From Nitrospirota bacterium (GTDB lineage Bacteria > Nitrospirota > Thermodesulfovibrionia > Thermodesulfovibrionales > Dissulfurispiraceae), in NCBI GenBank assembly GCA_963710375.1, contig CAVPZX010000001.1:64001-128000 (forward strand): a DNA stretch of 64,000 bases, read 5' to 3'. Position numbers and translations under genes: made by a program. The notes beneath the pieces are model-generated. The model was not told the DNA's origin, did not search any database, and was given only the letters and a program-made list of their open reading frames with translations. Shown here piece after piece: positions 1-51,875 of the stretch (positions are counted from its first letter, which is position 1; every line of letters begins with the position of its first letter).

Positions 1-828
1 TTTGACCCCTTCTATGTTGCCGCCAAATTCTTCGCAGAGCCTCACCGTATCGTGACTTTCAGGGAAGCTTATGGACGGGGCAATTTCCCGTGTGAGGGCA
101 TATTGTTCCATTAACCATGGGTTGTGGAAATCCCACCATTTTGAGCTGTTAAAAATATAATCAAAACCGGCGCTGGCGGTTTTTCTGGTCTGATCCGGAG
201 GGCAGCCGAGCGTCTCAGCAAAAAAAAGCACATCAGGATATTTTTTCTTTATTTCGCTGATGAGTCTTTGCCATAAACTGCCCGGCACCTGATAGGCCGC
301 GTCGCAGCGGAATCCCTTAAAGCCCAGCTTAGCCATGAATGTCACTACACTGAGAAAGAATTGAAACAGACCTTCTTTGTCTCTTGTACCCCGGTGGTCA
401 AACCTTGCGAGGTCATTCCAGATCACCTTTTGCCCGTCTTCATACGCGAATGGATGAGCAATGGTGCCGTCGGATTCATGGAGAAACCATTCCGGGTGTA
501 ATTCTGTCAGGTCTGAATCCGAGGAGCAATGATTGATCACCAGGTCCACCATTACCTTCAGACCAAGTTTCTCCGCGGTCCTGATCGCGTCCATTAACTG
601 TTCATGAGGTTTTTTTTCGATTTCCTCGTCAACTAATAATGGATTGAAATCAAAATAATCCGCTATCGAGTAAAGACTGCCCGATCTGCCGGTACGCTGA
701 ACAGGGTTGACAAAAATCCAGTTGAAGCCCATTTCCGAGGCTCGCAATAAATGACTTTCCCAACCGGCAAACTTTCCTGCCAGCAGAGGAAACAGGTTAT
801 AGATGATCATCTTTTCCGGTTTTCTCAT
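1..828 (-). CDS. GH13 alpha-amylase family glycoside hydrolase (partial, runs off the window start)
   Basis: Not in the ORF track because it has no stop in the window. ATG at 828 with GGAGGA at 835-840. Translates MRKPEKMIIYNLFPLLAG...MVDLVINHC...GFKGFRCDAAYQVP...FFAETLG...SFPESHDTVRL, i.e. GH13 regions I-IV with catalytic D/E/D. Confidence 0.9.
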   Translation of the reverse strand, partial: MRKPEKMIIYNLFPLLAGKFAGWESHLLRASEMGFNWIFVNPVQRTGRSGSLYSIADYFDFNPLLVDEEIEKKPHEQLMDAIRTAEKLGLKVMVDLVINHCSSDSDLTELHPEWFLHESDGTIAHPFAYEDGQKVIWNDLARFDHRGTRDKEGLFQFFLSVVTFMAKLGFKGFRCDAAYQVPGSLWQRLISEIKKKYPDVLFFAETLGCPPDQTRKTASAGFDYIFNSSKWWDFHNPWLMEQYALTREIAPSISFPESHDTVRLCEEFGGNIEGVK

Positions 829-847
829 AATTTTTCCTCCTAATTAA

Positions 848-1879
848 TCACTTTCTTATGGCATCCGTTACGAGCCGATAGTTCTTACACAGTACAGAAA
901 GCCAGAAATTCATCCGTTCAGCATTTCCCTTATCCCGCCAGTGATGAAAAAGATAAGAGTCATCTACAAGCGGAAGCATTCCTTCAACCGGATGAATTTC
1001 GAGAGCGAAGGAAACCTGTTCAGGACCCGGCAACTCCAGTGCTCCGGCAACAATCCTCGAAAGCCCTAAAGGCCCGAACATCAAATCCAGAGATTTTTTC
1101 CCCATGTATGGGAATGGTAGCATAATTTTGTCTAAAAAACTCAAGTGGTCCGCCACTCCGAAAGGGCTGAAGGTCGAGAGCGGGTGTGCGTCGTGCAGAT
1201 GATAATGCAGCGGTTTCCCCAGGCTGCCGATTTCCCGCATCACGCGGAGAACTTCAGCTGGGGCCGCAGCGACCGCTTCCTCGATATCGCCTATTACATC
1301 CTGAAGACCGGCATCGTGAGGCTTGAGAGCACAAATATCTTTTCCCGGGTATTTGCCTGAATAGATACGCCTTGCCTGCCAAAGGCCCAAATGTCCTATA
1401 TCGATGCAGCTGCTCACGCGCTCAAGGTCACGTGATGCCCTGAAAAGAGCAATGAATAGATCAGGCTCAAGACCCGAAGCGTATTCGATAAAGAGATAAG
1501 GACTTCCCCCGATGTTTCTTAATCTCGATTCCAGGTCATGCAGGACAGTTAAATAACTGTCAAAGCAAAAGGCGATCTCGCTCTGATCATGAATTATTAA
1601 TCCGAAGATGCGGTTTTTAAATTTTTTGGCGAAATCGAGGATCAGTGCAAGGCTGTATTCGTCAAAGAGATTTATCCATCTGGGCAAATGCACGGTTGCC
1701 GGTACTTCAGGAGTCGGTTTGAACCTCCAAAGCCTCTCCAATTCGTCCGGACTTTCAGCGTAGAACTCGGGTCCGAGGCCGGCCTCTTTAAATCGCAGGG
1801 AGGCGAGCTGCAAAAGGGCGTCATCGCCGTCAATTCTTTTTTGGAAAAGCGCCAGAATTGGAGGTTTTGGGCTAGACAT
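848..1879 (-). CDS. Xylose-isomerase-like/AP-endonuclease-2 TIM-barrel metalloprotein, function unknown
   Basis: Likely start MSSPKPP at 1879, overlapping the PWD stop. Motifs VHLP, IEYA, CIDIGH, HYHLHD, DHLSF, LEIH. Confidence 0.7.
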   Translation of the reverse strand: MSSPKPPILALFQKRIDGDDALLQLASLRFKEAGLGPEFYAESPDELERLWRFKPTPEVPATVHLPRWINLFDEYSLALILDFAKKFKNRIFGLIIHDQSEIAFCFDSYLTVLHDLESRLRNIGGSPYLFIEYASGLEPDLFIALFRASRDLERVSSCIDIGHLGLWQARRIYSGKYPGKDICALKPHDAGLQDVIGDIEEAVAAAPAEVLRVMREIGSLGKPLHYHLHDAHPLSTFSPFGVADHLSFLDKIMLPFPYMGKKSLDLMFGPLGLSRIVAGALELPGPEQVSFALEIHPVEGMLPLVDDSYLFHHWRDKGNAERMNFWLSVLCKNYRLVTDAIRK

Positions 1880-4535
1880 TTCCCTGTTGGGCCCTAGATT
1901 GAACAAGGTATATCTCATCTCCAGAAACTACCCCCTCAATGTCCTGTGGATGCCCCAGGGCCTTCTCCACAAATTGTCCTATCGACCCTAAACGTCGGGC
2001 TATCAGGTTCCTGTATGTTCTGTTTTCAGAGAGGCTAATGTCTGAGTAATCTATGGTTTTCATTATGATTCCCCCCGAGTGACCAGGCCACAAAGCATGA
2101 CTGAAACTCGCAAAGGCCAGCATCCGGACCTTTTTCGTTTGTTTATTGCAGACTATCCGGTAAGGAACACCGGATTCTCCTGCTGCAGCTAATGTTTCAC
2201 CCAGACCAATCGCCAGCTCTATATAGATTTCTTCTTTATTATAAGTTACCGGATTGATCGTATGCATTATAAATGAGAATTCCGGAACTATCATTTTCTG
2301 AATGAGCACGGCCATATATGCCCTGTCGTGCCGTATACAATTGCTCCTTCTGTTCATTACTGCACGTTTGTTCCATAACGATGCCCATACTCTGCGTATT
2401 GCTATGGCAACATCGGAAGGAGGCGTGTTTGCGACAGAATCGTAGAGTCCAGCCCCGGCAAATCTTTCCATATCTTCACAGTTTGAGCTTGAGCGTACTA
2501 TCAACCGTTCATTAGGCAGGAATTTTTTAGTGACGCCTGAGACGATTTCATCCGGCACCTCTATATGATTTACGATCTCCTGTAGTCTTCTTCCGGTAAC
2601 GGCAAAATCCTTATGCCGGTGGCTGTTAAGGCCGCTGACTAATAGCCCGTACTCCTTTTCGAGCCCGGGTTGGGCAGACAAAGATGCTTCCATCACTCCA
2701 AGTGGAATTACAAGTCCTGGCGCGGTCTTGAATCCGGCATGCGCAAGCCCGGATAATTCCTCAAGCTGCCGTGCCGCAAAGGCTTTGCCGCCGGCTATTT
2801 CCGCAGTGACCCTGTTGAGAGACAATATTGGGGGCAATTTATCTGCAGAGAATAAAACTGCTTCCCGGGCCTCTACAGCCGGCAACTGAATTCTATCCGG
2901 ATCATTATTTTGTTTGTTCATTTTACGATCATAAGAAAATTCCGGAAAAATTATTACACTGACTCTTTCGGCAAAGACATCCAGGTTAACCAACTTCCCG
3001 GCAAGACTTTTTAACTCTTCAAACCGTTCCCTTTCTTCACACGCTGTGAATGCGATATGACCTTGACGGGCGCGGACAGCCAAGTGTGACAGGTGAGGGA
3101 TTTCATGCGCAACTATGATGCCGGCAACCATCGCCGGTATATCCTCTTCCCCCTCGGCCTCTTCCAGAAGTGCTATAAGCGGACCGTTGCCTGCATCCGG
3201 TAAATGACTGATACCTTGCGCTGCAACCAGGCGGCCGGATGCTCTTCCGGGTACTATTACATCCCAGGCAGGGATATCCGCGAGTGTTCGAATTTGTTTT
3301 AGAAGCAGGGCAACGAGTTTAGATACCTGGAATACAGGGTGATTCCGGATTTCCGACTCGCTGAAAACTTTTATTGCATGCGCAGCCACGCCCAGGGCAT
3401 GACCTAAACTTTTTGCCTTTGAAGGGAATGTCGACAGAATTTTGTTACAGTAATCATCTGCCAATCGCGAACATCTTTCGAGAGTGGCTTTAATGCGGAG
3501 CAACTGTTCGACATCCTCAGGGGTAAACTTGCGGGACCAGTTTATCAGTTCGGACTCTATTGCCCGGCATTCCTCAGCATCGAATCCTCCTAATCCAAGG
3601 TTGCCGGTTGCCTGCAATAGTGACGATAAAGCCAATTCCCACGGTATCACATCCCTCATAGTTTCGAGGTGATTGTTTAAACGGCTGAGGAGAACAAAGG
3701 TGAAATCTTCCAGGCCAATGTCTGCCATCTGAAGCTGCTGTGCATTCGGTCCGTTTTCGAGTTCGAGCATTTCCTGAAATTGAATGCGAAGTTCCGTTAA
3801 ATGTTCCAACGCAGTTAACATCTGATTCGGAGTATTTATTTTTCTCTTGATTTCAAGAAATTTAGTTATAGACGATGCTTTGCGCGCGTCAACCTCATTT
3901 ATCATTTCCGCAAGGGCTTCGAGGCGTTCATCCAAAGATAACGCATTAAAAAATTCTTTAAGTTCCTCATGGAAACGCTCGAACTCCTCTATAAAAGGCG
4001 GGGGATACGCCGCGCCGGGTGCAGTAATCTTTTTCAGCAGGCTTTCAGAAGTGACGAGGTCTTCTGGTCCGGCAGAACGGTGGAGTTTGTTCTGAAGCGT
4101 GTGCTTGATTTCACGTTTAAGTTCTTCCGGGATATCATTTCTGTGCGCGATGTCCCTTATGCGTGTGAGGGGTTCCGCCCTTGTAAATGAGGCGTCGAAA
4201 GAGGGCAGGCAGGGGTAAATTTTTCTAATTATAAAAACATTTTCAGGGGTTGCTATTTCAGAGAGCCTCTTATATATTTGCTGTGCCATCTTTGCATGAT
4301 GGGATGGACGATAATGGCCGCCTTCCTCGCTGCATGGGACTTCGCCGGTACCGATAAAGCGGAGATAGACAGCTATATAAGCTAGATGATCTGTGTTCAG
4401 ATTGCAGGTGCTGTCGGCGAAGAGGTCTAGCAGCCAACCCAGCCTGTTCCTCCAGCTCAGGAACCTGCGGTTTGCATCAGCTATTTCATTTACAAAGTCT
4501 TCGCCCGATGTCAAATAGGCCTCCATAACCAGCAT
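1872..4535 (-). CDS. Phosphoglucan, water dikinase (PWD/GWD3)-like protein
   Basis: PWD-type blocks YLRFIGTGEVPCSEEGGHYRPSHHA and PLTRIRDIAHRNDIPEELKREIKHTLQNKLHRSAGPEDL; phospho-His motif LSHLAVRARQ; nucleotide-binding domain VRSSSNCEDMERFAGAGLYDS...PQDIEG. Alternative start at 4526. No N-terminal CBM20. Confidence 0.9.
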   Translation of the reverse strand: MLVMEAYLTSGEDFVNEIADANRRFLSWRNRLGWLLDLFADSTCNLNTDHLAYIAVYLRFIGTGEVPCSEEGGHYRPSHHAKMAQQIYKRLSEIATPENVFIIRKIYPCLPSFDASFTRAEPLTRIRDIAHRNDIPEELKREIKHTLQNKLHRSAGPEDLVTSESLLKKITAPGAAYPPPFIEEFERFHEELKEFFNALSLDERLEALAEMINEVDARKASSITKFLEIKRKINTPNQMLTALEHLTELRIQFQEMLELENGPNAQQLQMADIGLEDFTFVLLSRLNNHLETMRDVIPWELALSSLLQATGNLGLGGFDAEECRAIESELINWSRKFTPEDVEQLLRIKATLERCSRLADDYCNKILSTFPSKAKSLGHALGVAAHAIKVFSESEIRNHPVFQVSKLVALLLKQIRTLADIPAWDVIVPGRASGRLVAAQGISHLPDAGNGPLIALLEEAEGEEDIPAMVAGIIVAHEIPHLSHLAVRARQGHIAFTACEERERFEELKSLAGKLVNLDVFAERVSVIIFPEFSYDRKMNKQNNDPDRIQLPAVEAREAVLFSADKLPPILSLNRVTAEIAGGKAFAARQLEELSGLAHAGFKTAPGLVIPLGVMEASLSAQPGLEKEYGLLVSGLNSHRHKDFAVTGRRLQEIVNHIEVPDEIVSGVTKKFLPNERLIVRSSSNCEDMERFAGAGLYDSVANTPPSDVAIAIRRVWASLWNKRAVMNRRSNCIRHDRAYMAVLIQKMIVPEFSFIMHTINPVTYNKEEIYIELAIGLGETLAAAGESGVPYRIVCNKQTKKVRMLAFASFSHALWPGHSGGIIMKTIDYSDISLSENRTYRNLIARRLGSIGQFVEKALGHPQDIEGVVSGDEIYLVQSRAQQGNV

Positions 4536-4755
4536 TATTTATAAATTTATACAAGGAGCAGTCAGGCCACAGTGCTTCGTCTCAACTGCCACCCCAAAGA
4601 TCTTCGATCTTTCGGGGACCCCGTCTTCTCGCAAGGCATCCAGCCTTGCTCCGAGGCTATGACAGCCTGTGTCACCATCCTTGGTGTCACTTAGGCTGTC
4701 AAAGTCCGCTCAGCACCATGCCCCGCCCGCTCCTTGCATAAATTTATGAATAATG
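4533..4755. mobile_element. MITE-like palindromic element (223 bp)
   Basis: 27-bp terminal inverted repeat CATTATTTATAAATTTATACAAGGAGC / GCTCCTTGCATAAATTTATGAATAATG with 2 mismatches; three internal hairpins; no ORF. Confidence 0.7.
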
Positions 4756-4759
4756 TTTA

Positions 4760-5566
4760 CTAACCGATTATTTTCAGCAGCCTGGTGCGTATCTCTACGA
4801 GAAGGCTCTCCGGGTGCGGCCATTGCTCAAGGATAATGCATCCCGAAAAATTACGGTTTTTCATTCGCTCTATAAGGCCCCTTATACCTGTCGGGTCTTT
4901 TCCAGCCGGTCCTGTGAAAAGGGGCAGGTGGCTGTCATTGTCACCGTAATTTTCGTGCATATGTATATGGATTACCGGCACCTGAGGATCGAGCATGTCT
5001 ATAAACTTTAGGTAATCGTTACGTGTTGCTTTACACAGGTTCGCATGACCAATGTCCAGACACATTCCTACAAGCGGGGGATTGTCAGTAAGGCGCAGGA
5101 GACTGAATAGCTTATTGAAATCTTCAGGCCCTGTATTCGGAGTGTTTTCAATGGCGAGCTTAATTCCGTCATGTGCAAGGCGTTTCTTGAGAGGGACAAT
5201 AGCATCCACAAAGGCAGCAATCCCTTCATCGGCATAAAGATGAACGTTGACAAGAGATGCGCCAGTATCCTGTGCGAACCTGATAGTTTTGGATAAGTGT
5301 TCGAGTGTCTCAGATCTCAAAGGGTTAAGCTGCCACGGGGCGTGGACCGAGAGGCGGATATCATGCGCTGTAGCGGTATCCCTTATTAATAACCGTGCTT
5401 CTTTCGAAATGTCGTTTTCGTCCCAGCCGGCGCCTGACTCATTTTTATCCGGAAACCATTCAAATGCGTCAAAGCCGTTAGCTACGGCATATTCGAAAGG
5501 CTGCATCACGGAATATGCGGAAAGGGCAGTCTGATTGCCGATGCGTACACGCGCTGTTTCAATCAT
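4760..5566 (-). CDS. Sugar-phosphate isomerase/AP-endonuclease-2 family TIM-barrel metalloprotein
   Basis: Start MIETARVRIG at 5566 overlaps the GWD stop (ATGATTGA). Motifs SVHAPW, IENT, CLDIGHAN, HIHMHEN, DSHLP, ILEQW. Confidence 0.8.
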   Translation of the reverse strand: MIETARVRIGNQTALSAYSVMQPFEYAVANGFDAFEWFPDKNESGAGWDENDISKEARLLIRDTATAHDIRLSVHAPWQLNPLRSETLEHLSKTIRFAQDTGASLVNVHLYADEGIAAFVDAIVPLKKRLAHDGIKLAIENTPNTGPEDFNKLFSLLRLTDNPPLVGMCLDIGHANLCKATRNDYLKFIDMLDPQVPVIHIHMHENYGDNDSHLPLFTGPAGKDPTGIRGLIERMKNRNFSGCIILEQWPHPESLLVEIRTRLLKIIG

Positions 5567-8500
5567 GTTCAAGACCTGCCTGAGGGCGCGATTGAACGAC
5601 ATAATATTGTCCGTTGGTGTATGCGCCCTCAATATCCTGGGGACCACCCAGGACCTTTTCAACAGATGCGCCGATAGCGGCAATGTTTATCAAAAACTTG
5701 TTTCGAAAATTCTCGTCCCATACAAGCGCCTCTTCCGTGTAATTCAGGTTAACCTTAACGGGTTGCGGCAGCATGAAGCTGTCGTAAAGGCCTGCGCCCG
5801 CAAAGCCGGCAAGGTCTTCTCCATTTGAATCGGAACGGAAGACAAGTCCGCTGCCGAAAAGACCAATGCTTTTCCCCGGAAATGATAAGAGGTGAGGTTC
5901 CCGTCCGCCTTTCACACATGAGAAACTGAGCGCCCTGCCGGGGTAGTTTGCGACCAATGCCTCGCCGAGTCCTAGAACAACTTCGGCATAAATCTCATCG
6001 TTATTGTTAGTAAACGGGTTGACAGTATGGATCACAAAACTATAATCCGCTTCAACAACCCTCTGAACCAGAACAGCCATTATGAGGTATTCATCAGGGA
6101 TGCCGTTTGCCTTACGGCTTAAATACGCCCGTTCATTCCACTTGGAGCCCCAAACGAGTTTAATGCATGTCCATGCGTCTTCCCATTTTTCGGGCCAGTC
6201 TTGAGGCCGCCCGACTCCGGAATTTTCCATCACCGTACAGAGCGAGGAGAACAATTCGTCAGGCGACTCAAGGGCAAGGATGGTTTTTTTTATGTCTTCA
6301 AGCAAACCGTAGCGCGAACTTTCCGTTTCTTCCTTCAGCCTGCCGGAGCAGTTCGTTATGACGCTCTGCAAGTTCTTTGTTGGAAGGCCAGGCGAGGACC
6401 TTTTCAAAAACCCCGAAAGGCAGTGCTGCCGAGGCAGGGAGGTTTATCCAATCCGGCAGTTTGCCCTGCATACGTCTCAGGTTGTTGGATTTGCCTCCAG
6501 TGTTGTCTTTGTTGAACTCGTTCATCGGCACTGCGTAGACGCGCAAAAAAGGTTTTGGAATGGCTGATGTTTGTGTGAGAGGATGCCGGCCATGAGGTGA
6601 TGGGGCCTTCACATCTTCCCTGCTTTCTTCAAATGTAACCTCACCGCCTGCGCTGACGTCCAGTTTGATCAGTAAGCCGCCCAGAGACTTTAACGTTGCG
6701 ATCTCGTCGGAGTCGTAACAAACGGCGAAGAGTATATGCGCATTTCTGGCCCGTACCGCCAGATGGGACAGCACATCGACCGACTCTGGTGTTATGAGTG
6801 CGATGACCCCTTCAGGTATTTCTTCATTCCCCTCCACATCGTCTGCAATTACTACTGCCGGTTTGGTGAAACTCCTGCCCTGTATGGATTTCAAATGTGA
6901 TACCGTTTCGACAACTCCGGTTCCACTACTCAGGCTGATCAGCTGCCAGTTCCCGAGGTCGGCACTTTTCCGCAACAGGGCATCAAGTTTGCGCAAAAGC
7001 ACCGAAAGGACAAATGCAGGCCTCCCGCGCACCACCTCTTCGGTAAAAAGACTGACACTCCAGGAAGCAGCATGAAAGGCCTTTCCGAGAGATTCGGCCT
7101 TGGGCTGAAGGAGTTGGTGATATCGGTCGATGAAATTGCCCAGACCCCGCTGAAGGCGGTCGACCACTGCCTTCACCTGAAGCGGCCGCAGTTTCGCGTA
7201 TCGCGGCATCTTCTCCAGACGTTTCCAGTAAGCAAGACAGCTTTCAAATTCCTCGTCGGCGGCTGAGATACACAGGTTCTCAAGGGACATTAGTGTCAAT
7301 TCCTCCAGCTGACCTAAGTTCAGTTTCGGATGAAGGTTTTTTTCGACAACAGCCCTGAAGAAGTCTTCCATTGCCAGATCGAGAAAAAGCAGGTCACGCA
7401 CCTTGCTTTGATGCTCGCCGAGCCTGCCCGCGACCCAATGTCGTATTTCAGTGATTTTTTCAAGTAGTGTAAATGCACGGTCTCCACTATCTTCCCGATG
7501 TGACAATACATAATCCACAAGTCTTTGCATATCTGCATCGAACATATATCGTGTGGAATTGACGGCTGTGCCGAGATCTGTGCCGGAATGTATTTCCTTG
7601 AGTATTTCGAGGAAGTGCTCGAAATCATGCATCAGGGCCTCTTTCAGATGAGGGATAAAGCTCGGCGGCGACTTGATCGGGCGCTCATAGCTTTCCAGCC
7701 TTTTCCGGGTGACGCCGCCTGCTTCAAGTCTCTTATAGAAAAGATCAATGTTTCCGTTGCTTGCCAGGAATTCCAGATAGGCCTCACATATGACTATATC
7801 GTCGGGTGTGGCATTATTATGGAGCTTCTGATGCCATTCTTCCATAAAATGTCCTGCAGCCTCTTTGATATGATGGCGATGCATTATATTCAATATCTCG
7901 TCACGGACCCTCTGTGCATCCCTCCCTGTGCCGAGAGTTGTCATTATCAGGCGTATGAGCTCCCGCTCTGCCGGCTCGTCAATGTAGCGGCTTGCGAGTT
8001 TGTCCGTAAGGCGGCTTATGGCATGGCCTAATTCCCGCGGCTTGGTATTATAGTTCCGCTGCCAGTCCAGTTGTCTGATATACGAAAAACGGAGCCAGAC
8101 ATAGATCAGCGCAACCCCTTCGACATTATTGCTTCCGAGTCTGTCCAGCAGGTCATAGCAGAGATTGAACCTGTGCATCAATGTCCATGAATTGCGGCCC
8201 ATTTCATTTTCGATGATTTTATCAGCAATAGAAGCAAGGTCGAGACTTTCTGAAAAAGCTTCCTGCCCGGAAGGAACAGCAACAGGGATGAAGAAATTTT
8301 GTCCCTTCTCTTTTATCCAGCGCCCTGTGTCGCTCTGCTTGAGGACAAGCAGAATGCCCGCAGGCGCTTCTTTTTCGTCTATCTCCAGGGTTAACCGTCT
8401 GATATCGACATTGTCGGCAAATGGTGTCTGAGCTGCTGCATTTTGGAATACTGCTGTTCCGGCAGGATGCATCGAAAATGGAGGCACAACCCATTCGTGA

Positions 8501-8718
8501 TGGGAATCATATGTTACTCCCCAATGAAGAATCAGGGGACCCTGTATATCGGTAAGCAGAGTTATAATATAGCGTTCCCGGTCCCTGGCAACTACAACTG
8601 CCAATTGTCCTTCTGCAAGCCTATAATGGTGTTCATAAGCTATTATTTTATCAACTGCTTCTCTTTTGAGCTGTTCGATGAAAGATAGGGCAGATCCGCT
8701 ATTTTCAGAATGTTCTAT
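5559..8718 (-). CDS. Alpha-glucan, water dikinase (GWD1/R1)-like protein, about 1050 aa, with one frameshift near 6345
   Basis: Joins ORFs 6298..8604 and 5559..6407. CBM45-like LHWGV..EWVVPP..AAQTPF; GWD blocks LMHRFNL, VWLRFSYIRQLDWQRNYNTKPRE, MEEWHQKLHNNATPDDIVIC; phospho-His DVLSHLAVRARN; C-terminal VWGSKWNERAY and FRSDSNGEDLAGFAGAGLYDS. The frame stays open upstream to an ATA at 8718 behind GAGGGG. Confidence 0.9.
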
Positions 8719-8736
8719 GCTAATCCCCTCTTAGAG

Positions 8737-19643: not shown

Positions 19644-21346
19644 TTATCTAATATAAGCCTCTGTTACGTATCTTCTCATCATCCTATGGGAATTGAAGTA
19701 ATAGGCATTTTTGCCGATGGCGTTCTGCATGACCCTTATCCAAAGAGGCTTTTCATTATAAAACATCGGCATGATAATGCTCTCAAGCTTGTAATACAGG
19801 TCATCTGCGTCACGGGCCGGATCGGCAGGGACATTGGGCGACGGCCCTATGGCCCATCCGGTAAACCCTTCGATATGTCCTTCGATCCACCATCCGTCGA
19901 GCACACTGAAATTCGGGACTCCGTTATGCGTTGCCTTCATTCCGCTGGTTCCTGAGGCCTCGAGCGGCCTGAGCGGTGTATTGAGCCAAACATCGACACC
20001 TGATGTGATTTTAAGTGCGATATCCATACTATAATTCTTCAGAAATACTATGCGTATCTTGTGCTTGAGCCGCTCTTTAATTTCAAAGATGTGCTGTATC
20101 AGCTTTTTACCCGATTCATCATGCGGATGGGCCTTTCCCGCATATACAATTTGAAGTCTTCCTTCAGCCATGCGCGCCAACCGGTCCATATCGGTAAAAA
20201 GCAGGTCTGCTCTTTTATAAGCAGTTGCCCTCCTGGCGAATCCGATGGTAAAAGTATCATAATTCATACCCGCCTGCGTCTCGCGGTTTACATAGTCGAT
20301 AAGTTGCCGTTTCGCTTCCATATGCGCTTCCCATAGCTCATTGTCCGGGATGCGACCGACCCTTACGAAGATCTCGGGCTCATTGGCCCAGCCAGGCAGG
20401 TATTTATCATAGAGTCTTTTAAAACTGTCGCACGTCCAGGTAAAGGAATGTACCCCGTTTGTTATGGCATGGATGGCGTATCCGGGAAACATACTCTGAG
20501 AAACCTCGCCGTGTTTTTTTGCCACTCCGTTTATATAGTTGCAGAGATTCAGGGCGAGCAGCGTTAAATTAAGGTAGTCCTGTCCGGCAAATTCTTTTAC
20601 AGCGCTTAGAGGAATGATCTCTTCCATTATGCGCTGCACCGTTTCATACGTAAACTTGTCATGCCCTGCAGCCACAGGGGTGTGAGTGGTAAAAACGCAT
20701 AAACTCCTAACCTTCTCGACATCCCATACGAGATTCTCGTCCCACACTTCTTCAATATCTTTTTTGTACCTTTTGAGTAATTCAAGTATCAGGAGGCTCG
20801 AATGCCCCTCGTTCATGTGATATTTCTTGATTTGGAATCCCACTCTTCAAGCATTCGTGTGCCGCCTATACCGAGCACAATTTCCTGTTTGAGCCGGTAG
20901 TCGTTATCACCTCCGTAGAGACAATGGGTAATGCCCCTGTCCTGAGGCGCATTTTCTCCAAGGTCTGCATCGAGGAAGATAATGGGAACTTTCCCGCCTG
21001 TGGCACTTTCAATGATATATGTCCATGCCCCTATGACAACCTCTCTCCCCTCAATATGAACTATTACCTGTTCTGCGAGCGGATACATAAACTGCTGTGG
21101 ATCGAACTCATCAGGAAGTTCGGTCTGCCTCCCGTATATATCGAGCTCTTGCCTGAAATATCCTTTTTTTGTCAGTAAGGTTACTGCAACCATGGGGAGT
21201 TTCAGGTCGGCGGCTGATTTGATAGTATCTCCTGCCAGCACGCCGAGCCCGCCGCTATAGGTAGGCATATCGCTCCGAACCCCAATTTCCATAGAGAAAT
21301 ATGCTATTTTCGGCTCTTTTATAAAGGCATCCATACTATATTTCAT
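19644..21346 (-). CDS. glgP: Alpha-glucan phosphorylase (short type), frameshift near 20842
   Basis: IAYFSMEIG..YSGGLGVLAGD, RLKQEIVLGIGG, YHMNEGH, ARRATAYKR, PLP motif EASGTSGMK; joins ORFs 20813..21346 and 19644..20843. Confidence 0.9.
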
Positions 21347-38066: not shown

Positions 38067-39540
38067 ATGTACATAGTCATGATAACTCCGGAATGTGCCC
38101 CTGCCGCTAAAGTGGGCGGCCTCGCAGACGTTGTGTACGGTCTTTGCCACGAGACTCGATATCCGGGGAAACGATGTCGAAATCATACTGCCGAAATACG
38201 ACTGCATGCGGTATGATCAGATCTATGGGCTGCAAATGGCCTATAACGACCTATGGGTCCCTTTTTATGAGCGATGGGTGCATTGCTCAGTATTTTTCGG
38301 TTTCGTGCACGGAAGGAAATGTTATTTTATCGACCCCCATTCGGAGAAGAACTTCTTTAACAGGGGTATTTTTTACGGCCATAGCGACGATCCCGAGCGG
38401 TTTGCTTTTTTCTGCAGGGCTGCCCTTGAGTTTATGCTCAAGTCGAATAAGCATCCCGACATAATCCACTGCCACGACTGGCAGACCGGAATCGTGCCGG
38501 TACTTCTCTTTGATATGTTCAAGGGTTATGGCATGACACATCCCCGCGTCTGTTACACCCTGCACAACCTCATGCATCAGGGAGTGACCGGGGAGTTTAT
38601 ATTGCGTGCTGTTGGACTCCACAGGCCGGATTATTATCTTCACCCCGACCGGCTCAGGGATAACTTCAATCATTCCGCATTGAACCTCATGAAGGCCGGT
38701 ATTGTATATTCGAATTTTGTGACTACCGTGTCTCCCAGTTATGCATGGGAGATCAAGCATTCCGAACTGTCATACGGACTCGGTCACACCCTTCACGTCC
38801 ATGGGCAGAAGTTCGGTGGTATCCTTAACGGCATTGACTACGACGTATGGAACCCCGAGATCGACCGGTACATCCCATACCGGTATAAAATAGAAACGAT
38901 TCAGGACAAATACGGTAACAAAGAGGCACTTCGCAACAGGCTTCTCCTCCGGCATGTTTATAAGCCCATCGTATCGTACATAGGCAGACTGGACCAACAA
39001 AAAGGGGTAGGACTGATAAGGGATGCAATATTCTATTGCCTGTCAAACGGCTGCCAATTCGTCCTTCTTGGTTCTGGTCCGGACCACGGTATTCACAATC
39101 ATTTTCTCCATCTCAAGCACCAGCTGAATGACAACCCCGACTGCCATATCGAGATCGGATTTAACGAGGAACTCTCGCACCTCATATATGCCGGATCGGA
39201 TATGATAATTGTCCCCAGCCTGTTCGAGCCCTGCGGGCTGACCCAAATGATAGCCCTGAAATACGGGACAGTGCCTGTAGTGAGGGCGACCGGTGGTTTG
39301 CGGGACACGGTCTTTGATGCCGACTATAGCCATAGGCCCTATCACGAGCGGAACGGATATGTATTCAACGACTTCAATTTCGAGGGAATGCAGTCGGCGC
39401 TTACGCGCGCAATCGGCATGTGGTATTCTTATCCGCAACACTTCAGGGAACTGATGGTAAACGGCATGCGCTATGATTTTTCATGGAACCACCCCGCATA
39501 CCACTACCTGAATATCTATGCACATATCAGGGACAAGTGA
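38067..39540 (+). CDS. glgA: Glycogen/starch synthase (GT5, GlgA2-like), frameshift near 38153
   Basis: True start ATG 38067 gives MYIVMITPECAPAAKVGGLADVVYGL (KxGGL ADP-glucose motif), then shifts into ORF 38095..39540 with HCHDWQTG, RLDQQKG, PSLFEPCGLTQM. Confidence 0.92.
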
Positions 39541-41832: not shown

Positions 41833-42735
41833 TCAGGAATCTAAAGAAATTGAACCTGCCTGAGTCCTGCGCGAACCGTTGACACCTGCTAGTGGAAAAT
41901 CCCGGAGATGAGCATCCAGCAGAGCACTTACTGCATCTCCGGATGCAAGTTTTATTTTTATTGTGCGGTAGATCAGCGCTGACGGCAATGAAACAATAAA
42001 TATATCGACCCACCCCAGCATGTATTCGCGGATTGCGAAGGTTACAGAGATATTGAAAACCAGAATTCCGGCAAAAAGCATGGGACCCACAAGGTATCTC
42101 CATGGATAATGATATCCAGTATAGTCAGAGGTACCGGTCCGGTATAGGTAATAATCGATTTTCTGCAAGGCCCAGATCATAAGGAAACCTACCACGACCC
42201 AGCCGGCGAAATTTGAGATGGGAACGCCGAAATATACTCCCCTCTCAGGGTACCCATAAATCTGTCCCAGAAACCACTTGTTGCCTACAAGTGCAACAGG
42301 ATCGATAATGATATCGAGGTAAACAAAGAGGATCGCCCCGAGTATTCTGACAGCAGGTGAATTTCTGATTTCCCTTGTTTCAAGAATATATAGCGTTTTC
42401 TTCAGGCGCATGACCGGAGCACTGACAAGGAGGGCCACGGAGTAACTTGCATACGCAAGGAATACATAGCTCATCGAATCTATCAGGGGTACTCCGAGCA
42501 CCCAGATTTCGCTGCCTTTTGTCTGCTCAATATAGAAGTAATATCCGTATGGAATGCCGTTGTGAATTGAGGAGTATTCCGACAGCCAGGCAATTCCGTA
42601 TCCTGCAACTGAGAAAAGCAGCGCTCTTTTTAATCCCAGGTGAAGCGAACAGCCCAGCATATAGATCAACAGGAACACAAATACGTACGGTCTCAACGCA
42701 ATTGTGTGCAGGACAAGCAGAAGAAAGTCTGCCAT
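41833..42735 (-). CDS. CruF-like carotenoid biosynthesis (hydratase family) membrane protein
   Basis: E..SIHNGIPYGYYFY, LGVPL, LDIIIDPVAL, YFGVPISNFAGW. Confidence 0.75.
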   Translation of the reverse strand: MADFLLLVLHTIALRPYVFVFLLIYMLGCSLHLGLKRALLFSVAGYGIAWLSEYSSIHNGIPYGYYFYIEQTKGSEIWVLGVPLIDSMSYVFLAYASYSVALLVSAPVMRLKKTLYILETREIRNSPAVRILGAILFVYLDIIIDPVALVGNKWFLGQIYGYPERGVYFGVPISNFAGWVVVGFLMIWALQKIDYYLYRTGTSDYTGYHYPWRYLVGPMLFAGILVFNISVTFAIREYMLGWVDIFIVSLPSALIYRTIKIKLASGDAVSALLDAHLRDFPLAGVNGSRRTQAGSISLDS

Positions 42736-43739
42736 CAGCTGCGCTTAAAGTTCCAGATTAATAATCTCAGGAGGTCTTTTGGGTTTGCGAAGGAGGTCCT
42801 CATGACAGTTGCTTCGTACCCGCTGTGTACCAGACAGTTTGCACATCTTGGGTCCTTGCCTGTGCCATACTTGTCCCAGGGGGTTTTCTCCATCATTTCC
42901 CTGAAGGTGGCATAATAGGTGTCGGTAATCAAATAGCAGGGCGATTTCCAGCCGAGGGGATTGCGTGTCGGGTTGCCCCATGGAGTGCATTGCATCTCCC
43001 TGCCGCCCTTCAGCAAGTCTACGTAGAGCGGAGAATTCATAAATGGGAATTTCTGGAAGAAGGACGCCATTTGATTGAATTTATCATGTATCTCATCTCT
43101 GTTGAGAAAGATATTGTTTTCTACGCTCTCATAGCTGAAAGCCGGGGCCATAAGCGTGCCGTCAACTTTGATATTGGTGAGGATTTCGAACAGGCGTTCA
43201 AGTTCTTTTACGTCGGAGTTTTTATAAACTGAAGTGTTTGTGCTTACTCTGAACCCACGCTGCTTTGCCTTTTTTATGGTTTCAATGGCCTTTCTGTAAG
43301 TCCCGCTTTTGTTGGTAATAGCATCATGGGTTTCTTCAAGTCCGTCCAGATGAATATTGATGGTGAGTCTGGAGCTTGGCTCGAACTCCTCAATAAAGGA
43401 TTCCGTAAGGAGGCCATTAGAGCAAAGGTACACATGTTTTTTCATCCTTAGAATTTCTCTGACGAGCGGTATAAGTTCCTTGTAAAGGAGAGGTTCTCCC
43501 CCTGTTACAGTGACCACAGGGGCATCTGACTCGGTAACAGCCCCGATGCATTGCTCAAGAGAAAGGTCAGGGGACTGCCGATCATCGTGCAGGCGTATCC
43601 TGTCACATCCGGCACAGGCGAGATTGCACCTGTGAGTAGGCTCAAGCATCAGCACCAGCGGAAAGCGCTTTCTTCCCGACCTGGCGTTCCTGACAAAAGA
43701 TTTAGTAAGCGATATGTATAAACTGACCGGAAAACGCAT
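42735..43739 (-). CDS. hpnH: Adenosyl-hopene transferase (radical SAM)
   Basis: KRFPLVLMLEP..RCNLACAGC, CTPWGNPTRN, PCYLI, CANCLVHSGYE; hopanoid gene context. Confidence 0.9.
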   Translation of the reverse strand: MRFPVSLYISLTKSFVRNARSGRKRFPLVLMLEPTHRCNLACAGCDRIRLHDDRQSPDLSLEQCIGAVTESDAPVVTVTGGEPLLYKELIPLVREILRMKKHVYLCSNGLLTESFIEEFEPSSRLTINIHLDGLEETHDAITNKSGTYRKAIETIKKAKQRGFRVSTNTSVYKNSDVKELERLFEILTNIKVDGTLMAPAFSYESVENNIFLNRDEIHDKFNQMASFFQKFPFMNSPLYVDLLKGGREMQCTPWGNPTRNPLGWKSPCYLITDTYYATFREMMEKTPWDKYGTGKDPRCANCLVHSGYEATVMRTSFANPKDLLRLLIWNFKRS

Positions 43740-43755
43740 AAATGTTTAACCCCCC

Positions 43756-43939
43756 AGGGCTCGCGAATAAATAACTTGCACATTGATGCATCTCAGATTT
43801 ATAGGCCATCTTTGCCTGATTCTCAGTCGCAAAATCCTCAACGTAGCCATGCTACGCCTGCGGTTTTGCTCAGTCGGACCAGCCAAATCTGACCTAAATC
43901 TGAGCGCCTGAATGCACAAGTTATTTATTTGCGAGCCCT
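43756..43939. mobile_element. MITE-like palindromic element (184 bp) overlapping the hpnA 3' end
   Basis: 29-bp terminal inverted repeat AGGGCTCGCGAATAAATAACTTGCACATT / AATGCACAAGTTATTTATTTGCGAGCCCT with 3 mismatches; nested internal stems CTCAGATTTA/TAAATCTGAG, GCAAAA/TTTTGC, CGTAGC/GCTACG. Confidence 0.75.
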
Positions 43940-44922
43940 ACATAATTATTTTCTTTGAACCACTCTATCGCCTGTTCCATGGCATGCTCAACAGGACTTT
44001 GAGGCATGTGCAGTTCCTTGACAGCCCTGGAGGCATCGAAGTACATATATTTTCTGGCCATTCTCACCCCTGAGAGCGGAATTCTCGGATGCCTATGGGT
44101 AAAAAGTGTTGAGATGGTTTCGTCGATGCAGGCTGCAAACAGTACCGGCAGATATGGGAGCCTGATTTTAGGAGGTCGGCGTCCGGTAATGCGGGCAAGG
44201 GATTCGAAGAATTCCCTGAGAGTGATATTTCTGTTTCCCAATATGTAAGATTGTCCGGTCATTCCTCTTTCTGATGCGAGCCAGTGGCCCGCAGCTACAT
44301 CCCCGACATCGACGAAGTTTAGTCCTGTGTCCAGGAATGCCGGTATCCTGCCGTTGAGGAAGTCAACAATAGTCTGTCCGGTTGGGGTGGGTTTCCTGTC
44401 CTGGGGACCTATAGGGGTAGAAGGATACACAATGACTGCCGGAACTCCTTTACCGATGAATGAAAGCACCTCATTCTCGGCGATAAACTTGGACCGTTTG
44501 TAATGGCCGACCATTTCATTTATGGTCGCCCGGCTTTCCTCATTCGAAACCTTCCCGTTTGATGATGCAGCCAGTACTCCCACTGAGCTTGTATAGATTA
44601 CCTTCTCAACGCCGAGTTTAAGCGCAGCCTCCATGCAATTTCGCGTGCCGTCAACATTGATAGAGTACATAGTTGCGGGATCGGGGACCCAAAGCCGGTA
44701 ATCTGCAGCCAGGTGGTATAATTGCCGGCATCCACCGAGTGCCCGGCAGATAGATTCAAAGTCCCTGATATCTCCGGCGACCGGCTCAATGTCCAAGGCT
44801 TTCAGAGCGGTTGCATCGCTTTGTCCCCTTACCAGCGCCCTTACCTGAATTCCTTTTTCTGTTAAAAAACGGGCGACATGAAAACCGATAAAACCGGTAG
44901 CGCCGGTAACAAGAACCCTCAC
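43921..44922 (-). CDS. hpnA: Hopanoid-associated NAD-dependent epimerase/dehydratase
   Basis: TGATGFIG, HLAADYRLW, YKRSK, KPTPTG. Confidence 0.9.
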   Translation of the reverse strand: MRVLVTGATGFIGFHVARFLTEKGIQVRALVRGQSDATALKALDIEPVAGDIRDFESICRALGGCRQLYHLAADYRLWVPDPATMYSINVDGTRNCMEAALKLGVEKVIYTSSVGVLAASSNGKVSNEESRATINEMVGHYKRSKFIAENEVLSFIGKGVPAVIVYPSTPIGPQDRKPTPTGQTIVDFLNGRIPAFLDTGLNFVDVGDVAAGHWLASERGMTGQSYILGNRNITLREFFESLARITGRRPPKIRLPYLPVLFAACIDETISTLFTHRHPRIPLSGVRMARKYMYFDASRAVKELHMPQSPVEHAMEQAIEWFKENNYVGLANK

Positions 44923-46907
44923 TACTTTCCGGCTCCTTTGTCCTCGATCAGCTTGTTAAACTTGCCAAGCGCCATTAGAGGGAAACAGTTGCGGTAATTG
45001 TGATACCTGATCATGAAGTATTTCGGAAATCCGGTACCGGTGAAGAACTCCTCTTCCCAGGTGCCATCCGGCTGCTGTTTATTGAGGAGGTACCTTATGC
45101 CGTTATGCACTTCCTCGCTGGTACCTTCACCTGCTGCGATCAACGCCAGGATAGCCCACGCTGTCTGTGAAGGGGTGCTCCACCCCTCGCATTTCAAGTG
45201 CGCCTGATCATACGAATCACAACACTCTCCCCAGCCGCCGTCAATCTTCTGATGGCTTTTAAACCACCTTACTGCTTTTTGCACATAAGGTTTTGACATG
45301 TCTTCCCCGATTGAGCCCAGGCCGACAAGTACCGAACTGGATCCATAGATGTAATTTACTCCCCATCTGCCCCACCACGTCCCGTCCTCTTCCTGATTCT
45401 TTTTCAGGAACCGTATAGCCTTGCGCACAATATCGTGTGATGGCGCAAACCCGATTAATCCGAGGAGTTCAAGAACTCTTCCGGTTATATCCGGCGTGCT
45501 GGGATCGATCATAGCCTCGAGATCTCCGAACGGCAGTTGGTTTAATATCCTCAGGTCATTGTTCACATCAAAGGCGCCCCATCCACCATCCTTTCCGCGC
45601 ATTCCAAGTGTCCACCGGAGGCCGCATTGCAAGCTTTCAGGTGTAACAAATGAACGATCAGCATACCTGTTCAAAAGCATCAGCACAACGGCGGTATCAT
45701 CCACATCCGGGTACCAGTCATTGTCAAATTCAAATGCCCATCCACCAGGCTGAAGATCAGGCCTCTTGACACTCCAATCGCCCTTGCAGAATACCTGCTT
45801 CGAGACAAGCCACTTGCAGGCAGAGTTAATGGCAGGATGGTCCCTGTCCATACCCGAATACAGCAGTGCGAGCGCGCTCAATGCCGTGTCCCATACAGGA
45901 GATATGCATGACTGGAGGATCATCTCATCTTCCTTTTCCAATGTAAAGTTTTCGAGGGCCTCGAGTCCTTTTTTGATCGGTTCATATGCTAAGCCATAGC
46001 CAAGTGCCGAAAGCGCGAGTATCGAGTTGACCATTGCCGGCTGGATTCCTCCCCAGTCGCCGCTCGGCTCCTGATGTTCATGTACCCATTGTTCTGTTTT
46101 TTTCAGTGCCTTTTCCCTCAGCGGTCTTACCGGCAGGTCCTCACCCGCTTTTATCAGTTGGTCAAGGATGATAAAAAAACGTTTCCAGGATAAGGGTGAT
46201 AGTTTTTGCGTCGTAACCGGCGGTATCTTGCCGGGTTCTTTATAAAGTTCACGCACGCCTGCTTTGTTCGGCAAGGGGCGTGATGGCTTTCGGTCGAGCA
46301 CTGCAGAGAGCGGTACAAGTGTAGATCTCGCCCAGCTCGAAAAATTGTAAATATTTATGGGAAACCATGAAGGCAAAAGATTTATCTCCACCGGAATAGA
46401 TGGAATCGCCTTCCAGTCGAACTCTCCAAAAAGGGCGAGGAATATTTTCGTGAAAACTCTCGATGCCTCAATGCCCCCTGATTCAAGGATGAAAGCCCTG
46501 GCTTTTCTCAATGGAAGTTCATCAGCTGAAAAGCCGGCAAGTTTCAGCGCGAAGTAGGCCTCGACTGTTGTGCTGAGATCTCCACTCCCGCCCCAGTGTA
46601 TTGCCCAGGTGCCGTCGATCCTCTGGTTCTTTAATATGTGTTGTGCTATTTTTTTATCTCTGGCCGCATCTTTTAAGCCAAGGAAATGAAGTAGCATCAG
46701 ATATTCGGCGGTAATGGTAACATTCGATTCCAGTTCGTACAGCCAGTACCCGTCTTTATGCTGGTCCTCTATATAATATGCATGAGTTTTCCGTATGGCT
46801 TCGCGTATCCTTTCAGCCAGTCTTTTGGAAGTTAAAACCGGAAGTTTTTCCTTCTCTGGTTTCGCAGGCAGTGACCTGAATTGAAGCCGTGATAATGTAC
46901 CGCTCAT
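44922..46907 (-). CDS. shc: Squalene-hopene cyclase
   Basis: YPDVDDTA catalytic motif; QW repeats (QEEDGTWWGRWG, QKIDGGWGE); SPVWDT; TGTGFP. Confidence 0.97.
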   Translation of the reverse strand: MSGTLSRLQFRSLPAKPEKEKLPVLTSKRLAERIREAIRKTHAYYIEDQHKDGYWLYELESNVTITAEYLMLLHFLGLKDAARDKKIAQHILKNQRIDGTWAIHWGGSGDLSTTVEAYFALKLAGFSADELPLRKARAFILESGGIEASRVFTKIFLALFGEFDWKAIPSIPVEINLLPSWFPINIYNFSSWARSTLVPLSAVLDRKPSRPLPNKAGVRELYKEPGKIPPVTTQKLSPLSWKRFFIILDQLIKAGEDLPVRPLREKALKKTEQWVHEHQEPSGDWGGIQPAMVNSILALSALGYGLAYEPIKKGLEALENFTLEKEDEMILQSCISPVWDTALSALALLYSGMDRDHPAINSACKWLVSKQVFCKGDWSVKRPDLQPGGWAFEFDNDWYPDVDDTAVVLMLLNRYADRSFVTPESLQCGLRWTLGMRGKDGGWGAFDVNNDLRILNQLPFGDLEAMIDPSTPDITGRVLELLGLIGFAPSHDIVRKAIRFLKKNQEEDGTWWGRWGVNYIYGSSSVLVGLGSIGEDMSKPYVQKAVRWFKSHQKIDGGWGECCDSYDQAHLKCEGWSTPSQTAWAILALIAAGEGTSEEVHNGIRYLLNKQQPDGTWEEEFFTGTGFPKYFMIRYHNYRNCFPLMALGKFNKLIEDKGAGK

Positions 46908-47368
46908 AAGGAGTTCCTTCCCTTTGCGGAACAGTGTATTCCGCTTTCGTTTATGCCCTGGTGATACACGGTCATCCCGTTATCTTCAGATCGCTGCCGG
47001 CCATCTAGCGCCACGAGAATAATGCCCAGAGTGATTACAACAGTCCCGGCCCAGCGAAACCAGGACAGTTCCTCCCTCAGCACAAATTTGGCAAGCATTG
47101 CGGCAAAAATATATGACATAGCTGTTAAAGGCATTACAAAGCTGAGATCGGCCCACGAGAGGGCGGCGAGGTAGAGGAAGAAAAAACAGGCGAGGAAGAC
47201 CACCCCGGCTAACACATATGGGTTTCGGACCACAGACAGTATCAGTTGCCCCCACTGGGAAGGGATGGCAAGGTTTATCTGCCCATTCCTCTTCATTCCG
47301 TAGCTTAATAAGGTTTCACCTATTGCGGCACTCAAGGTCGCCAATAATATCACGATAAATGTTTTCAC
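46904..47368 (-). CDS. EamA/DMT family membrane transporter
   Basis: Four hydrophobic segments; ALSWADLSFVMPL; RWAG. Confidence 0.8.
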   Translation of the reverse strand: MKTFIVILLATLSAAIGETLLSYGMKRNGQINLAIPSQWGQLILSVVRNPYVLAGVVFLACFFFLYLAALSWADLSFVMPLTAMSYIFAAMLAKFVLREELSWFRWAGTVVITLGIILVALDGRQRSEDNGMTVYHQGINESGIHCSAKGRNSL

Positions 47369-48336
47369 TGCATCTCCTTTTTGATGTTAAAAATTTTTTT
47401 CGGTGCGGTGAAATCCTTGTACCCGACCGGCAATTTATGTAATTCTTTTATAAGATTACGCACACTGGGGGAGACTAACGCTGCAAGTTCACGTCAACCG
47501 GCAGGTGTTGCAGTATCCGGGTGAGTGAATATTTCACTTATCTCTGTACCGGCAAGCTCCAGAATATCAAGGAAAAACTGCTCATCAATGTTTCCGCTGC
47601 TTGAAAGACCGCAAACACGGTCCGCACTTAACATCCCGTATTTACGGGCTGTCCCGGAGTTGTATTTTCCGAGCATACCGAAGACCGCCCATTCGACAAA
47701 AGGCAGGGACCCGCGCGACGGAGAGCGGAATGTCTTAACCATTGAAAGCGGCTCATTGGGGAGCCTGACCCAGCAAATGTCTCTCCGGAATGCCTGACGG
47801 CAAAGCACTTCGAAAATAACCGGGTGCATATGAAGATGATGATGGCCGTCCACATGGTGAGGGCGGATACCGGCCCTCTCAAGGCGCTCGAACTGAGCCG
47901 CCACTTCAGCCTCGATCTGTGCGAGGAGGCCTGGTCTCGTATAGTGCAGCCCGGCACGAAAAGGATCTTTTATGAAGTTGCCGTCATGATCTGTAATATC
48001 CGGTATAGACGCATGGGGCAACACAGCTTTGCCGTCGCAAAGTGTTAAGTGCAGCCCTATTGAGAGCCGGCTGCGGTCAAGAGCGGTCTGCACCGCGTCA
48101 TCAAAAGCCTCTCCCCCTGCCATAATGCTTGCGGCAGTAAGTATCCCCTTATCATGGGCTTCGGCGATAGCCCGGTTGACTGACGCCGATTTGCCCATAT
48201 CGTCGGCAACAATAACCACACAGCCTTTACCCTTGAAATTCAAATCGGAACGTGTCTCCTGACGGGCCTGGTATCGGGAACCGGCTGCGCCGTCAAACCC
48301 GCCATAAGAAGGGGGGTTCAGTAATAGGGTACGCAT
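47365..48336 (-). pseudogene. hpnK: HpnK/YdjC-family deacetylase with an HpnJ-like N-terminal stub and an internal TGA
   Basis: ATG 48336 (RBS AGAGGAG) gives MRTLLLNPPSYGGFDGAAGSRY, then YdjC motifs ADDMG, GLHLTL, HVDGHHHLH, HP. The TGA at 47494-47496 is followed in frame by RELAALVSPSVR..GYKDF to a stop overlapping the next GTG start. Confidence 0.75.
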
Positions 48337-48468
48337 TTTTCTCCTCTTGTTTGAGAGCATCTTTACAAAAAAAGTTAGATGGAAATTTTTTAATAAGTGC
48401 AATATATCCTAATGACTTAAGACTAATAATTTATTATAGTATACTGTTTTTTTGCAAGTTTAAGAAGC

Positions 48469-51132: not shown

Positions 51133-51209
51133 TAACTCACCAGTATTTCAAAAAGAATTTTTTTAAAGTATAATTTATAATAATAACATAACGCTGAACT
51201 GGGGGGTCG

Positions 51210-51875
51210 ATGCCATACGCTGAACGTACAAAGCTGTGCACACAACGCTCACTTGCTGCGCGGTTTGCGGGGTTTATTCTTTTGGTAGCTTTTTCCTGCA
51301 CTGCAGTATGTTATTCTTTTGCAGCCGCAGAGCCTCCGGTACCGGCAGAGGTCATTAAGGGATTCAATGCTGTACTTCTGGAATCCATGAAGAGGGCTGG
51401 TGAACTCGGCTATGCCGGACGCTATAAGCTCATGGAGCCGGTCATTACAGAGGCTTTTGCCATTCCCTTTATGGGGAGAGCTACTGTAGGCAGCAACTGG
51501 AAGACCTTTAATGATAAACAGAAGCAAACTTTTCTGGAGACTTACACTGAATGGACAATTGCATCGTATGCGGGGCAATTTAATGGTTATTCGGGAGAGA
51601 GTTTTGAAATAGTTTCAGAATCAAAACCTGTCAGTGGCGTTGTGACTGTTGTCAGCAAGCTCATTCAGTCTAATGACGAGCACGTCGATTTCTACTACCA
51701 GCTGCGGAAGGTCGATGGCTTATGGCGCATTGTGGATATAAAAATTTTGGGCGTGAGCCAGCTTGCTCTGACACGGGTACAGTTTGTAAGTATAATTAAA
51801 ACCAAAGGGTTTGATGCCTTGATCGCTATGCTTAAAAATAAAACCGACAATTTCTCCAGGAGAGCGGAAAAATAG
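51210..51875 (+). CDS. MlaC/Ttg2D-family lipid-binding protein (HpnM-like)
   Basis: Signal peptide; YA.QFNGYSGESF; WRIVDIKILGVSQLALTR. Confidence 0.82.
   Translation: MPYAERTKLCTQRSLAARFAGFILLVAFSCTAVCYSFAAAEPPVPAEVIKGFNAVLLESMKRAGELGYAGRYKLMEPVITEAFAIPFMGRATVGSNWKTFNDKQKQTFLETYTEWTIASYAGQFNGYSGESFEIVSESKPVSGVVTVVSKLIQSNDEHVDFYYQLRKVDGLWRIVDIKILGVSQLALTRVQFVSIIKTKGFDALIAMLKNKTDNFSRRAEK

Follow-up and report, generated by a model that had tools for sequence, protein, structure and literature searches.

Do bacteria that carry plant-like glucan dikinases also carry enzymes that remove the phosphate these dikinases would add, and could such enzymes be built on a fold of their own? The question is raised by an operon in the 64,000-nt window G000:C1:64001-128000, the whole stretch of DNA that we analysed. 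The operon lies on the minus strand, with its genes in the order GWD-like dikinase, barrel A, PWD-like dikinase, barrel B, GH13 enzyme:

5559..8718, minus strand: GWD-like glucan dikinase (dikinase 1), ~1050 aa, with an Ig_N_CWD1 module, a central domain with FTEEVVR, a phospho-His domain and PPDK_N
4760..5566, minus strand: barrel A, 268 aa, a candidate phosphoesterase tracking GWD-type dikinases, with Pfam AP_endonuc_2 and nine endonuclease IV-type ligands
4533..4755, no strand assigned: MITE-like repeat separating the genes of barrel A and the PWD-like dikinase, with 44-nt inverted arms and genomic copies
1872..4535, minus strand: PWD-like glucan dikinase (dikinase 2), 887 aa, with a central domain, a phospho-His domain (SHLAVRAR at 483) and ATP-binding PPDK_N
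848..1879, minus strand: barrel B, 343 aa, a candidate phosphoesterase tracking PWD-type dikinases, a TIM barrel of the AP-endonuclease-2 fold with no Pfam family
1..828, minus strand, leaving the window (G000:C1:63524-64828): GH13 alpha-amylase-family gene, 434 aa, whose catalytic motifs look intact

The ATG of barrel A overlaps the stop of dikinase 1 by 8 nt, in ATGATTGA, and the ATG of barrel B overlaps the stop of dikinase 2, likewise by 8 nt, in ATGTCTAG. The arrangement given in the preliminary description, a barrel after each dikinase with overlapping start and stop, therefore holds at both junctions. A gap of 225 bp separates barrel A from the gene of the PWD-like dikinase.

The two dikinases differ in how closely they resemble their plant counterparts. 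Dikinase 1 comprises the Pfam domains PF23166 (Ig_N_CWD1), PF22973 and PF01326, and its intact orthologue in locus L003 matches the central domain of potato GWD (PDB 9ha9) with an E-value of 2e-87. The GWD-type dikinase keeps the E-E-x-x-R helix that is proposed, in the account of potato GWD1 in PMC13553574, to serve phosphate transfer. Dikinase 2 comprises PF22973 and PF01326 and, compared with the central domain of potato GWD, gave no match; its typing as PWD-like draws on automatic JGI PWD labels of its homologues. As in the plant pair GWD (EC 2.7.9.4) and PWD (EC 2.7.9.5), each of the two dikinases combines a central domain with phospho-His and ATP-binding domains, and an amylase-family partner is present here as in plant starch phosphorylation. 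The GH13 enzyme of the operon is 57-92% identical across loci, and its solved relatives are distant (best E 2e-22). The genome also encodes glycogen synthases and further GH13 enzymes. Unlike the plant system, this one is a bacterial operon, its PWD-like protein has no CBM20 detectable by a Pfam scan, and the genome has no dual-specificity phosphatase (DSP). The preliminary description had recognised no such phosphatase in the window; a search with PF00782, which was positive in 9 of 14 control genomes, extends this absence to the whole genome. A regular expression for the CX5R loop returned two matches, neither of them a DSP.

In the assembly, one extra base at position 6339 shifts the frame and splits the gene of dikinase 1. 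This base is missing from the contigs of all four sequencing runs inspected (from two studies; one run, X1, may be the source of the assembly), which identifies the frameshift as an assembly error. Six relatives are in frame at the same site, and together with the run contigs they led us to reject the possibility that dikinase 1 is a pseudogene. At position 3891 the contigs of all four runs have G in place of A. The GWD-like gene has no in-frame ATG at its expected start (8716-8730): ATA stands where locus L002 has ATG, and L001 and L004 likewise have ATA. A non-canonical start is therefore possible, and judging from this alignment the gene likely starts with the ATA near 8718.

The MITE-like repeat, with its inverted arms and an apparent 10-bp duplication (ATAAATTTAT), has 25 other copies of at least 100 bp in the genome and occupies the place of the fusion linker in relatives. 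In relatives, the A-PWD gap is filled by inserts that differ from locus to locus (~0.8, 2.2 and 6 kb in L002-L004), and for this reason it may be an insertion hotspot. The repeat is unlikely to have caused the separation of A from PWD, since A ends alike in L001, L002 and L004 and the gaps differ in L002-L004.

Barrels and dikinases are also linked by their distribution. We sampled 622 genomes of two phyla, with both centre genomes picked for carrying barrel A and with kin among the sampled genomes (one family gives 9/9). Among 301 genomes of the window's own phylum, a dikinase domain occurs in 17, barrel A in 15 and barrel B in 4; among 321 genomes of the second phylum, centred on G318, the corresponding counts are 8, 7 and 3. 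In both phyla every barrel-carrying genome falls within the dikinase set, and the 597 genomes without a dikinase yielded neither A nor B. Barrel A is present in 22 of 24 GWD genomes, including 14 of the 16 with GWD only, where the GWD typing of G112, G190, G213 and one G245 locus is by frame length and score. Nine genomes have PWD or a remnant of it, and seven of these carry barrel B; none of the 16 GWD-only genomes does.

There are exceptions. The complete genomes G157 and G215 have GWD beside GH13 but carry neither barrel. We considered a displacing phosphatase in these genomes and found no DSP over the cut-off in either. G215 has two GWD-type genes (L043, L044), with a calcineurin-like phosphoesterase two genes from one of them. 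Adjacency of GH13 to GWD is seen in barrel-less genomes too (L042, L044). G225 and G261 carry PWD without barrel B, and each has a DSP elsewhere in the genome. G318 retains barrel B without an intact PWD, the sole His domain there being that of GWD.

Gene order shows the same pairing. Of 37 genome loci of barrel A, 34 have room for a gene directly upstream, which is GWD in 21; downstream, 35 loci have a fused PWD (10), a distant PWD (3), GH13 (13) or none of these (9). For barrel B we collected 80 metagenome loci, 57 of which have at least 400 bp of upstream sequence: the gene directly upstream is PWD in 47 of these and GWD in two, and eight have no dikinase there. GH13 follows barrel B in 23 of 40 metagenome loci. 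In loci L082 and L083, which lack both A and PWD, barrel B comes directly after GWD and is followed by GH13. The dikinase-barrel genes of L128, L135 and L173 have glycogen-synthase-like, phosphorylase-like and GH57/GT4 genes as immediate neighbours, the names in L128 and L135 being taken from sequence and not from a family scan.

In many relatives the barrels are parts of fusion proteins. Among the best 120 of 452 longer homologues of barrel A, 103 combine A with PWD or part of it, 11 have the architecture A+PWD+B and six are A+GH13, in a search that favours fusions by selecting long proteins. Of the 14 representatives of barrel B with at least 400 aa, 11 are PWD+B, one is B+GH13 and two could be assigned to neither type. 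Seen from the PWD-like dikinase, relatives often have A at the N-terminus and sometimes B at the C-terminus. We ruled out that A is an accessory of PWD only, because it is a free protein in 14 of the 16 GWD-only genomes and the fusion search had selected long proteins.

A group of 15 shorter A fusions stops at the boundary of the PWD central domain, ahead of the His domain. The stops were checked in three loci:

L007:9731-12106, L008:3509-5593 and L012:9989-12058: kinase-less fusions of barrel A with the PWD central domain (proteins including P0121, P0129 and P0142)

Thirteen of the 15 form one clade, together with two partial proteins (FastTree support 0.87). By its sequences, this clade has kept A and the presumed acceptor domain and lost the kinase parts. 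How glucan binds the central domain of GWD is still unknown according to the JBC paper (PMC13553574). That the short fusion has kept the PWD central domain suggests a polymeric substrate, and the protein would resemble the layout of a phosphatase with a binding module.

Co-occurrence or fusion with bacterial GWD and PWD, which had been proposed as a check on the phosphatase idea, was thus strongly borne out, with barrels nested within the dikinase genomes and fusions abundant. The notion of one barrel per dikinase stands in part: across genomes A goes with GWD and B with PWD, but the dikinase to which A is fused is PWD and not GWD, and B follows GWD in two loci.

Barrel A belongs to a recognised family. 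It matches Pfam AP_endonuc_2 (PF01261) with an E-value of 3e-29 and 102.9 bits (cut-off 31.1), its nearest relatives are found in Nitrospirota assemblies at 81-84% identity, and an Atlas search returned PF01261 clusters. Its motifs are E140, D171xGH174, HxH202xH204E205, D211xH213 and E247. In an hhalign alignment with a profile of 19 Nfo sequences from relatives (probability 91.7, E 8e-7), barrel A matches all nine ligand columns, with H75, H109, E140, D171, H174, H202, D211, H213 and E247. The predicted nine-residue trinuclear metal site of endonuclease IV type is thus complete in barrel A by alignment, and none of the nine ligands varies among 121 A domains. The structure model is a TIM barrel (pLDDT 89). 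Its top fold match is MJ1311 (PDB 3wqo; Z 23.0, rmsd 2.9, 233 aligned residues), followed by AP endonuclease (Z 21.8) and then sugar epimerases. Within NCBIfam, the best match of barrel A is CbiR (NF041277; E 3e-12), at 46.6 bits below the cut-off of 105 bits, and the sugar families IolE (16 bits, cut-off 290) and UlaE (13 bits, cut-off 317) are also below theirs.

Barrel B is more isolated. It has no match in Pfam, in NCBIfam (NF041277 included) or among PDB sequences, and an Atlas search returned only unnamed clusters; clustered at 50% identity, its family (E up to 0.001) comprises 326 clusters. Its AlphaFold2 model (pLDDT 94) nevertheless matches AP-endonuclease-2/xylose-isomerase barrels at Z ~19, and a profile alignment joins it to barrel A with a probability of 96.3. 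On the strength of the model and this alignment, we assign barrel B to the AP endonuclease 2/xylose isomerase-like superfamily by fold only. Aligned directly with the Nfo profile, it gave no alignment (probability 0.4). The motifs are E132, D160xGH163, HxH227xH229D230, D244H245 and E294, with D and H adjacent where barrel A has D-x-H. The equivalents of the nine ligands (H64, H97, E132, D160, H163, H227, D244, H245 and E294) are kept in 53-54 of 54 sequences of 31-53% identity, and E38, H225, H229, D230, H232 and H296 are invariant or nearly so. The trinuclear site predicted for barrel B therefore rests on equivalences drawn through A, with the change in D-H spacing. The ligand set listed in the preliminary description (E, DxGH, HxH(D/E), D..H, E) is intact in both proteins, and each has two further conserved histidines (A H75/H109, B H64/H97). 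A generic barrel elsewhere in the genome has C-terminal ligand motifs in common with the two.

These features place the barrels near endonuclease IV without making them members. In that enzyme the nine ligands include H69, H109, E145 and D179, and Glu261 activates water, as described in PMC5636811 (a further ligand list is given in PMC7076025). Barrel A has the fold and the nine-ligand trinuclear pattern in common with it and barrel B differs by one spacing change, but both are only 16-20% identical to Nfo and lie in a context of glucan metabolism, not DNA repair. Neither matches the nfo family model TIGR00587 at E 0.1, and the genome carries its own separate nfo, on C2. The endonuclease IV-type metal site, as predicted from sequence, suits phosphate-ester hydrolysis. 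An endonuclease IV family member with 3'-phosphatase activity is described in PMC2958311, and CbiR is presented as a non-DNA phosphodiesterase of the AP endonuclease 2 superfamily (bioRxiv 2020.09.02.280537). CbiR thus acts on a non-DNA phosphate ester like the one envisaged here but is a diesterase, and we identified no cobamide genes beside the barrels. MJ1311 is the solved structure nearest to barrel A by sequence (E 4e-8, ~22% identity) as well as by fold, and is listed in the PDB as uncharacterised. TTHB071 (PDB 3ayt), a further fold match of A at Z 20.1, reportedly binds phosphorylated cofactors through zinc. The same layout of ligands recurs in uncharacterised barrels and in MbnB, an O2-dependent oxidase with a TIM barrel, three metals and the ligands His-His-Glu-Asp-Asn-His-Asp-His-Glu (according to PMC9060507), and the ligand set is for this reason not diagnostic of a phosphoesterase. 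MbnB modifies peptides with O2, is 12-13% identical to the barrels and has a lower Z-score than other members of the fold.

The reading that we consider probable, if by no means secure, is that barrels A and B are metal-dependent phosphomonoesterases acting on glucan phosphate or malto-oligosaccharide phosphate, a prediction in which operon order, fusions, co-occurrence, fold and conserved ligands agree. The GWD-like and PWD-like dikinases would, like their plant homologues, phosphorylate a storage alpha-glucan. At the C-terminal face of each barrel, three divalent metals would bind the phosphate, and the glutamate of strand 8 (E247 in A, E294 in B, corresponding to Glu261 of endonuclease IV) would activate water. 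The substrate may be the polymeric glucan itself or phospho-malto-oligosaccharides that remain after GH13 action. After phosphate removal by the barrels, GH13 would finish the degradation of the glucan; in plants, phosphate removal is described as needed for full glucan breakdown (PMC13666283). The whole would form a writer/eraser cycle in which the dikinases write and the barrels erase, by monoester hydrolysis at a trinuclear site.

Still more conjecturally, A might act on the mark of GWD (C6) and B on that of PWD (C3). A strict C6/C3 division between the two barrels is speculative, and we doubt that it holds. We are similarly hesitant about the most far-reaching version, which we put forward as a possibility rather than an expectation: that several bacterial phyla have a full cycle, with A clearing C6 and B clearing C3, as the first glucan phosphatases unrelated to laforin and SEX4, and including a kinase-less form that uses the PWD central domain as a glucan-binding module. 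Plant SEX4 and LSF2 and animal laforin are cysteine phosphatases of the DSP fold with CX5R; the barrels, as predicted TIM-barrel metalloenzymes, are not members of this group and would be a functional analogue of SEX4/LSF2 on an unrelated fold.

Several observations count against the phosphomonoesterase reading. They include the barrel-less G157 and G215, the lack of B in G225 and G261, the position of B after GWD in L082 and L083, the eight B loci with no dikinase upstream, the lack of an intact PWD in G318, and, for B itself, the changed D-H spacing and the missing direct alignment with Nfo. An eraser fused to a writer also risks a futile cycle. The original proposal of candidate glucan phosphatases is therefore upheld by co-occurrence, fusions and the endonuclease IV-type site, and weakened by the non-diagnostic ligand set and the two GWD genomes without barrels. 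The structure comparison proposed with it was equally divided: both barrels model as AP-endonuclease-2-type TIM barrels, but phosphoesterases and sugar epimerases, isomerases and lyases score alike. Fold searches tie them in Z-score; for barrel B the top rows are shared by IolE, epimerase-like proteins and AP endonuclease, and a Foldseek search is led by endonuclease IV-type proteins with modest TM-scores.

This tie gives the best-surviving alternative its basis. The barrels could carry out other chemistry typical of this fold on phosphorylated sugars, acting as isomerases, epimerases, dehydratases or lyases; they might, for instance, feed glucose-3-phosphate or phosphomaltose that GH13 leaves behind into metabolism. 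Most of the fold matches are sugar epimerases, isomerases, IolE and glycoside lyases, and both barrels fuse to GH13. Yet both keep the histidines of strands 3 and 4 and the D..H pair that make up the extra metal sites of endonuclease IV, residues that single-metal epimerases are not known to have. The PWD central domain retained in the short fusion, with the polymeric substrate it suggests, also speaks against small-sugar chemistry, which we judge unlikely.

Somewhat harder to sustain is the idea that the barrels are readers of phosphoglucan, metal-based phosphate-binding modules that target PWD or GH13, with A at the position of the CBM in plant PWD. Such modules would entail no futile cycle, A is N-terminal in 114 of the best 120 longer homologues (those with PWD sequence), and plant PWD is described as requiring pre-phosphorylated glucan (PMC13666283, PMC13011383). 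However, the GWD-only genomes in which A is a free protein (14 of 16) offer no PWD to target, both barrels invariably keep the glutamate presumed to activate water, and the kinase-less short fusion has nothing to deliver in cis. Taken together, this makes a reader role distinctly improbable.

Tight coupling and fusion to the dikinases would also be expected of proteins that regulate them or clear their by-products, for instance by hydrolysing the phosphohistidine intermediate or nucleotide products, and potato GWD is stated to spend most of its ATP on hydrolysis in vitro (PMC13553574). Here, too, the fusions tell against the idea: the barrels are fused to GH13 as well, A adjoins GH13 in 13 of 35 loci, and the short fusion keeps the central domain and loses the His domain. 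We regard such a role as improbable to a still greater degree. Least credible of all is that the barrels work oxidatively as MbnB-like multinuclear iron enzymes, or have a function unrelated to glucan: the ligand spacing of MbnB is identical and it occurs among the fold matches (Z 16.4-16.6), but it ranks far below other fold members, the barrels have no match to Pfam DUF692 at E 0.1, and neither occurs in the 597 dikinase-negative genomes.

If the phosphomonoesterase reading is right, the barrels are likely an undescribed kind of phosphate-removing enzyme, for which they are at present candidates. A literature search with subscription journals and supplements outside its scope found no paper on them. 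The 2026 GWD structure paper (PMC13553574) contains no occurrence of 'bacteri', and bacterial GWD sequences are in print as leaves of a tree, possibly gained by transfer (PMC6260743). According to a 2026 review (PMC13666283), laforin is apparently absent from prokaryotes, and prokaryotic glycogen phosphorylation, with no known machinery, is an open question. The operon supplies candidate writers and erasers and thereby makes this question directly testable. Barrels that proved to be phosphatases would constitute a second, non-homologous class of glucan phosphatase, bear on the origin of plant starch phosphorylation and possibly provide site-specific tools for work on starch.

Elsewhere in the window, two ORFs at 61694-63998 (330 aa and at least 356 aa) have no Pfam match at 1e-5, and a hopanoid-type cluster at 41833-52707 comprises squalene-hopene cyclase, radical SAM, MMPL and MlaA/MlaC genes. 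A carbohydrate phosphorylase at 19644-21346 apparently lies in two ORFs, and a GT5 synthase at 38073-39540, beside a pentose-phosphate cluster, has its N-terminus in another frame. These split phosphorylase and GT5 ORFs possibly reflect further assembly indels.
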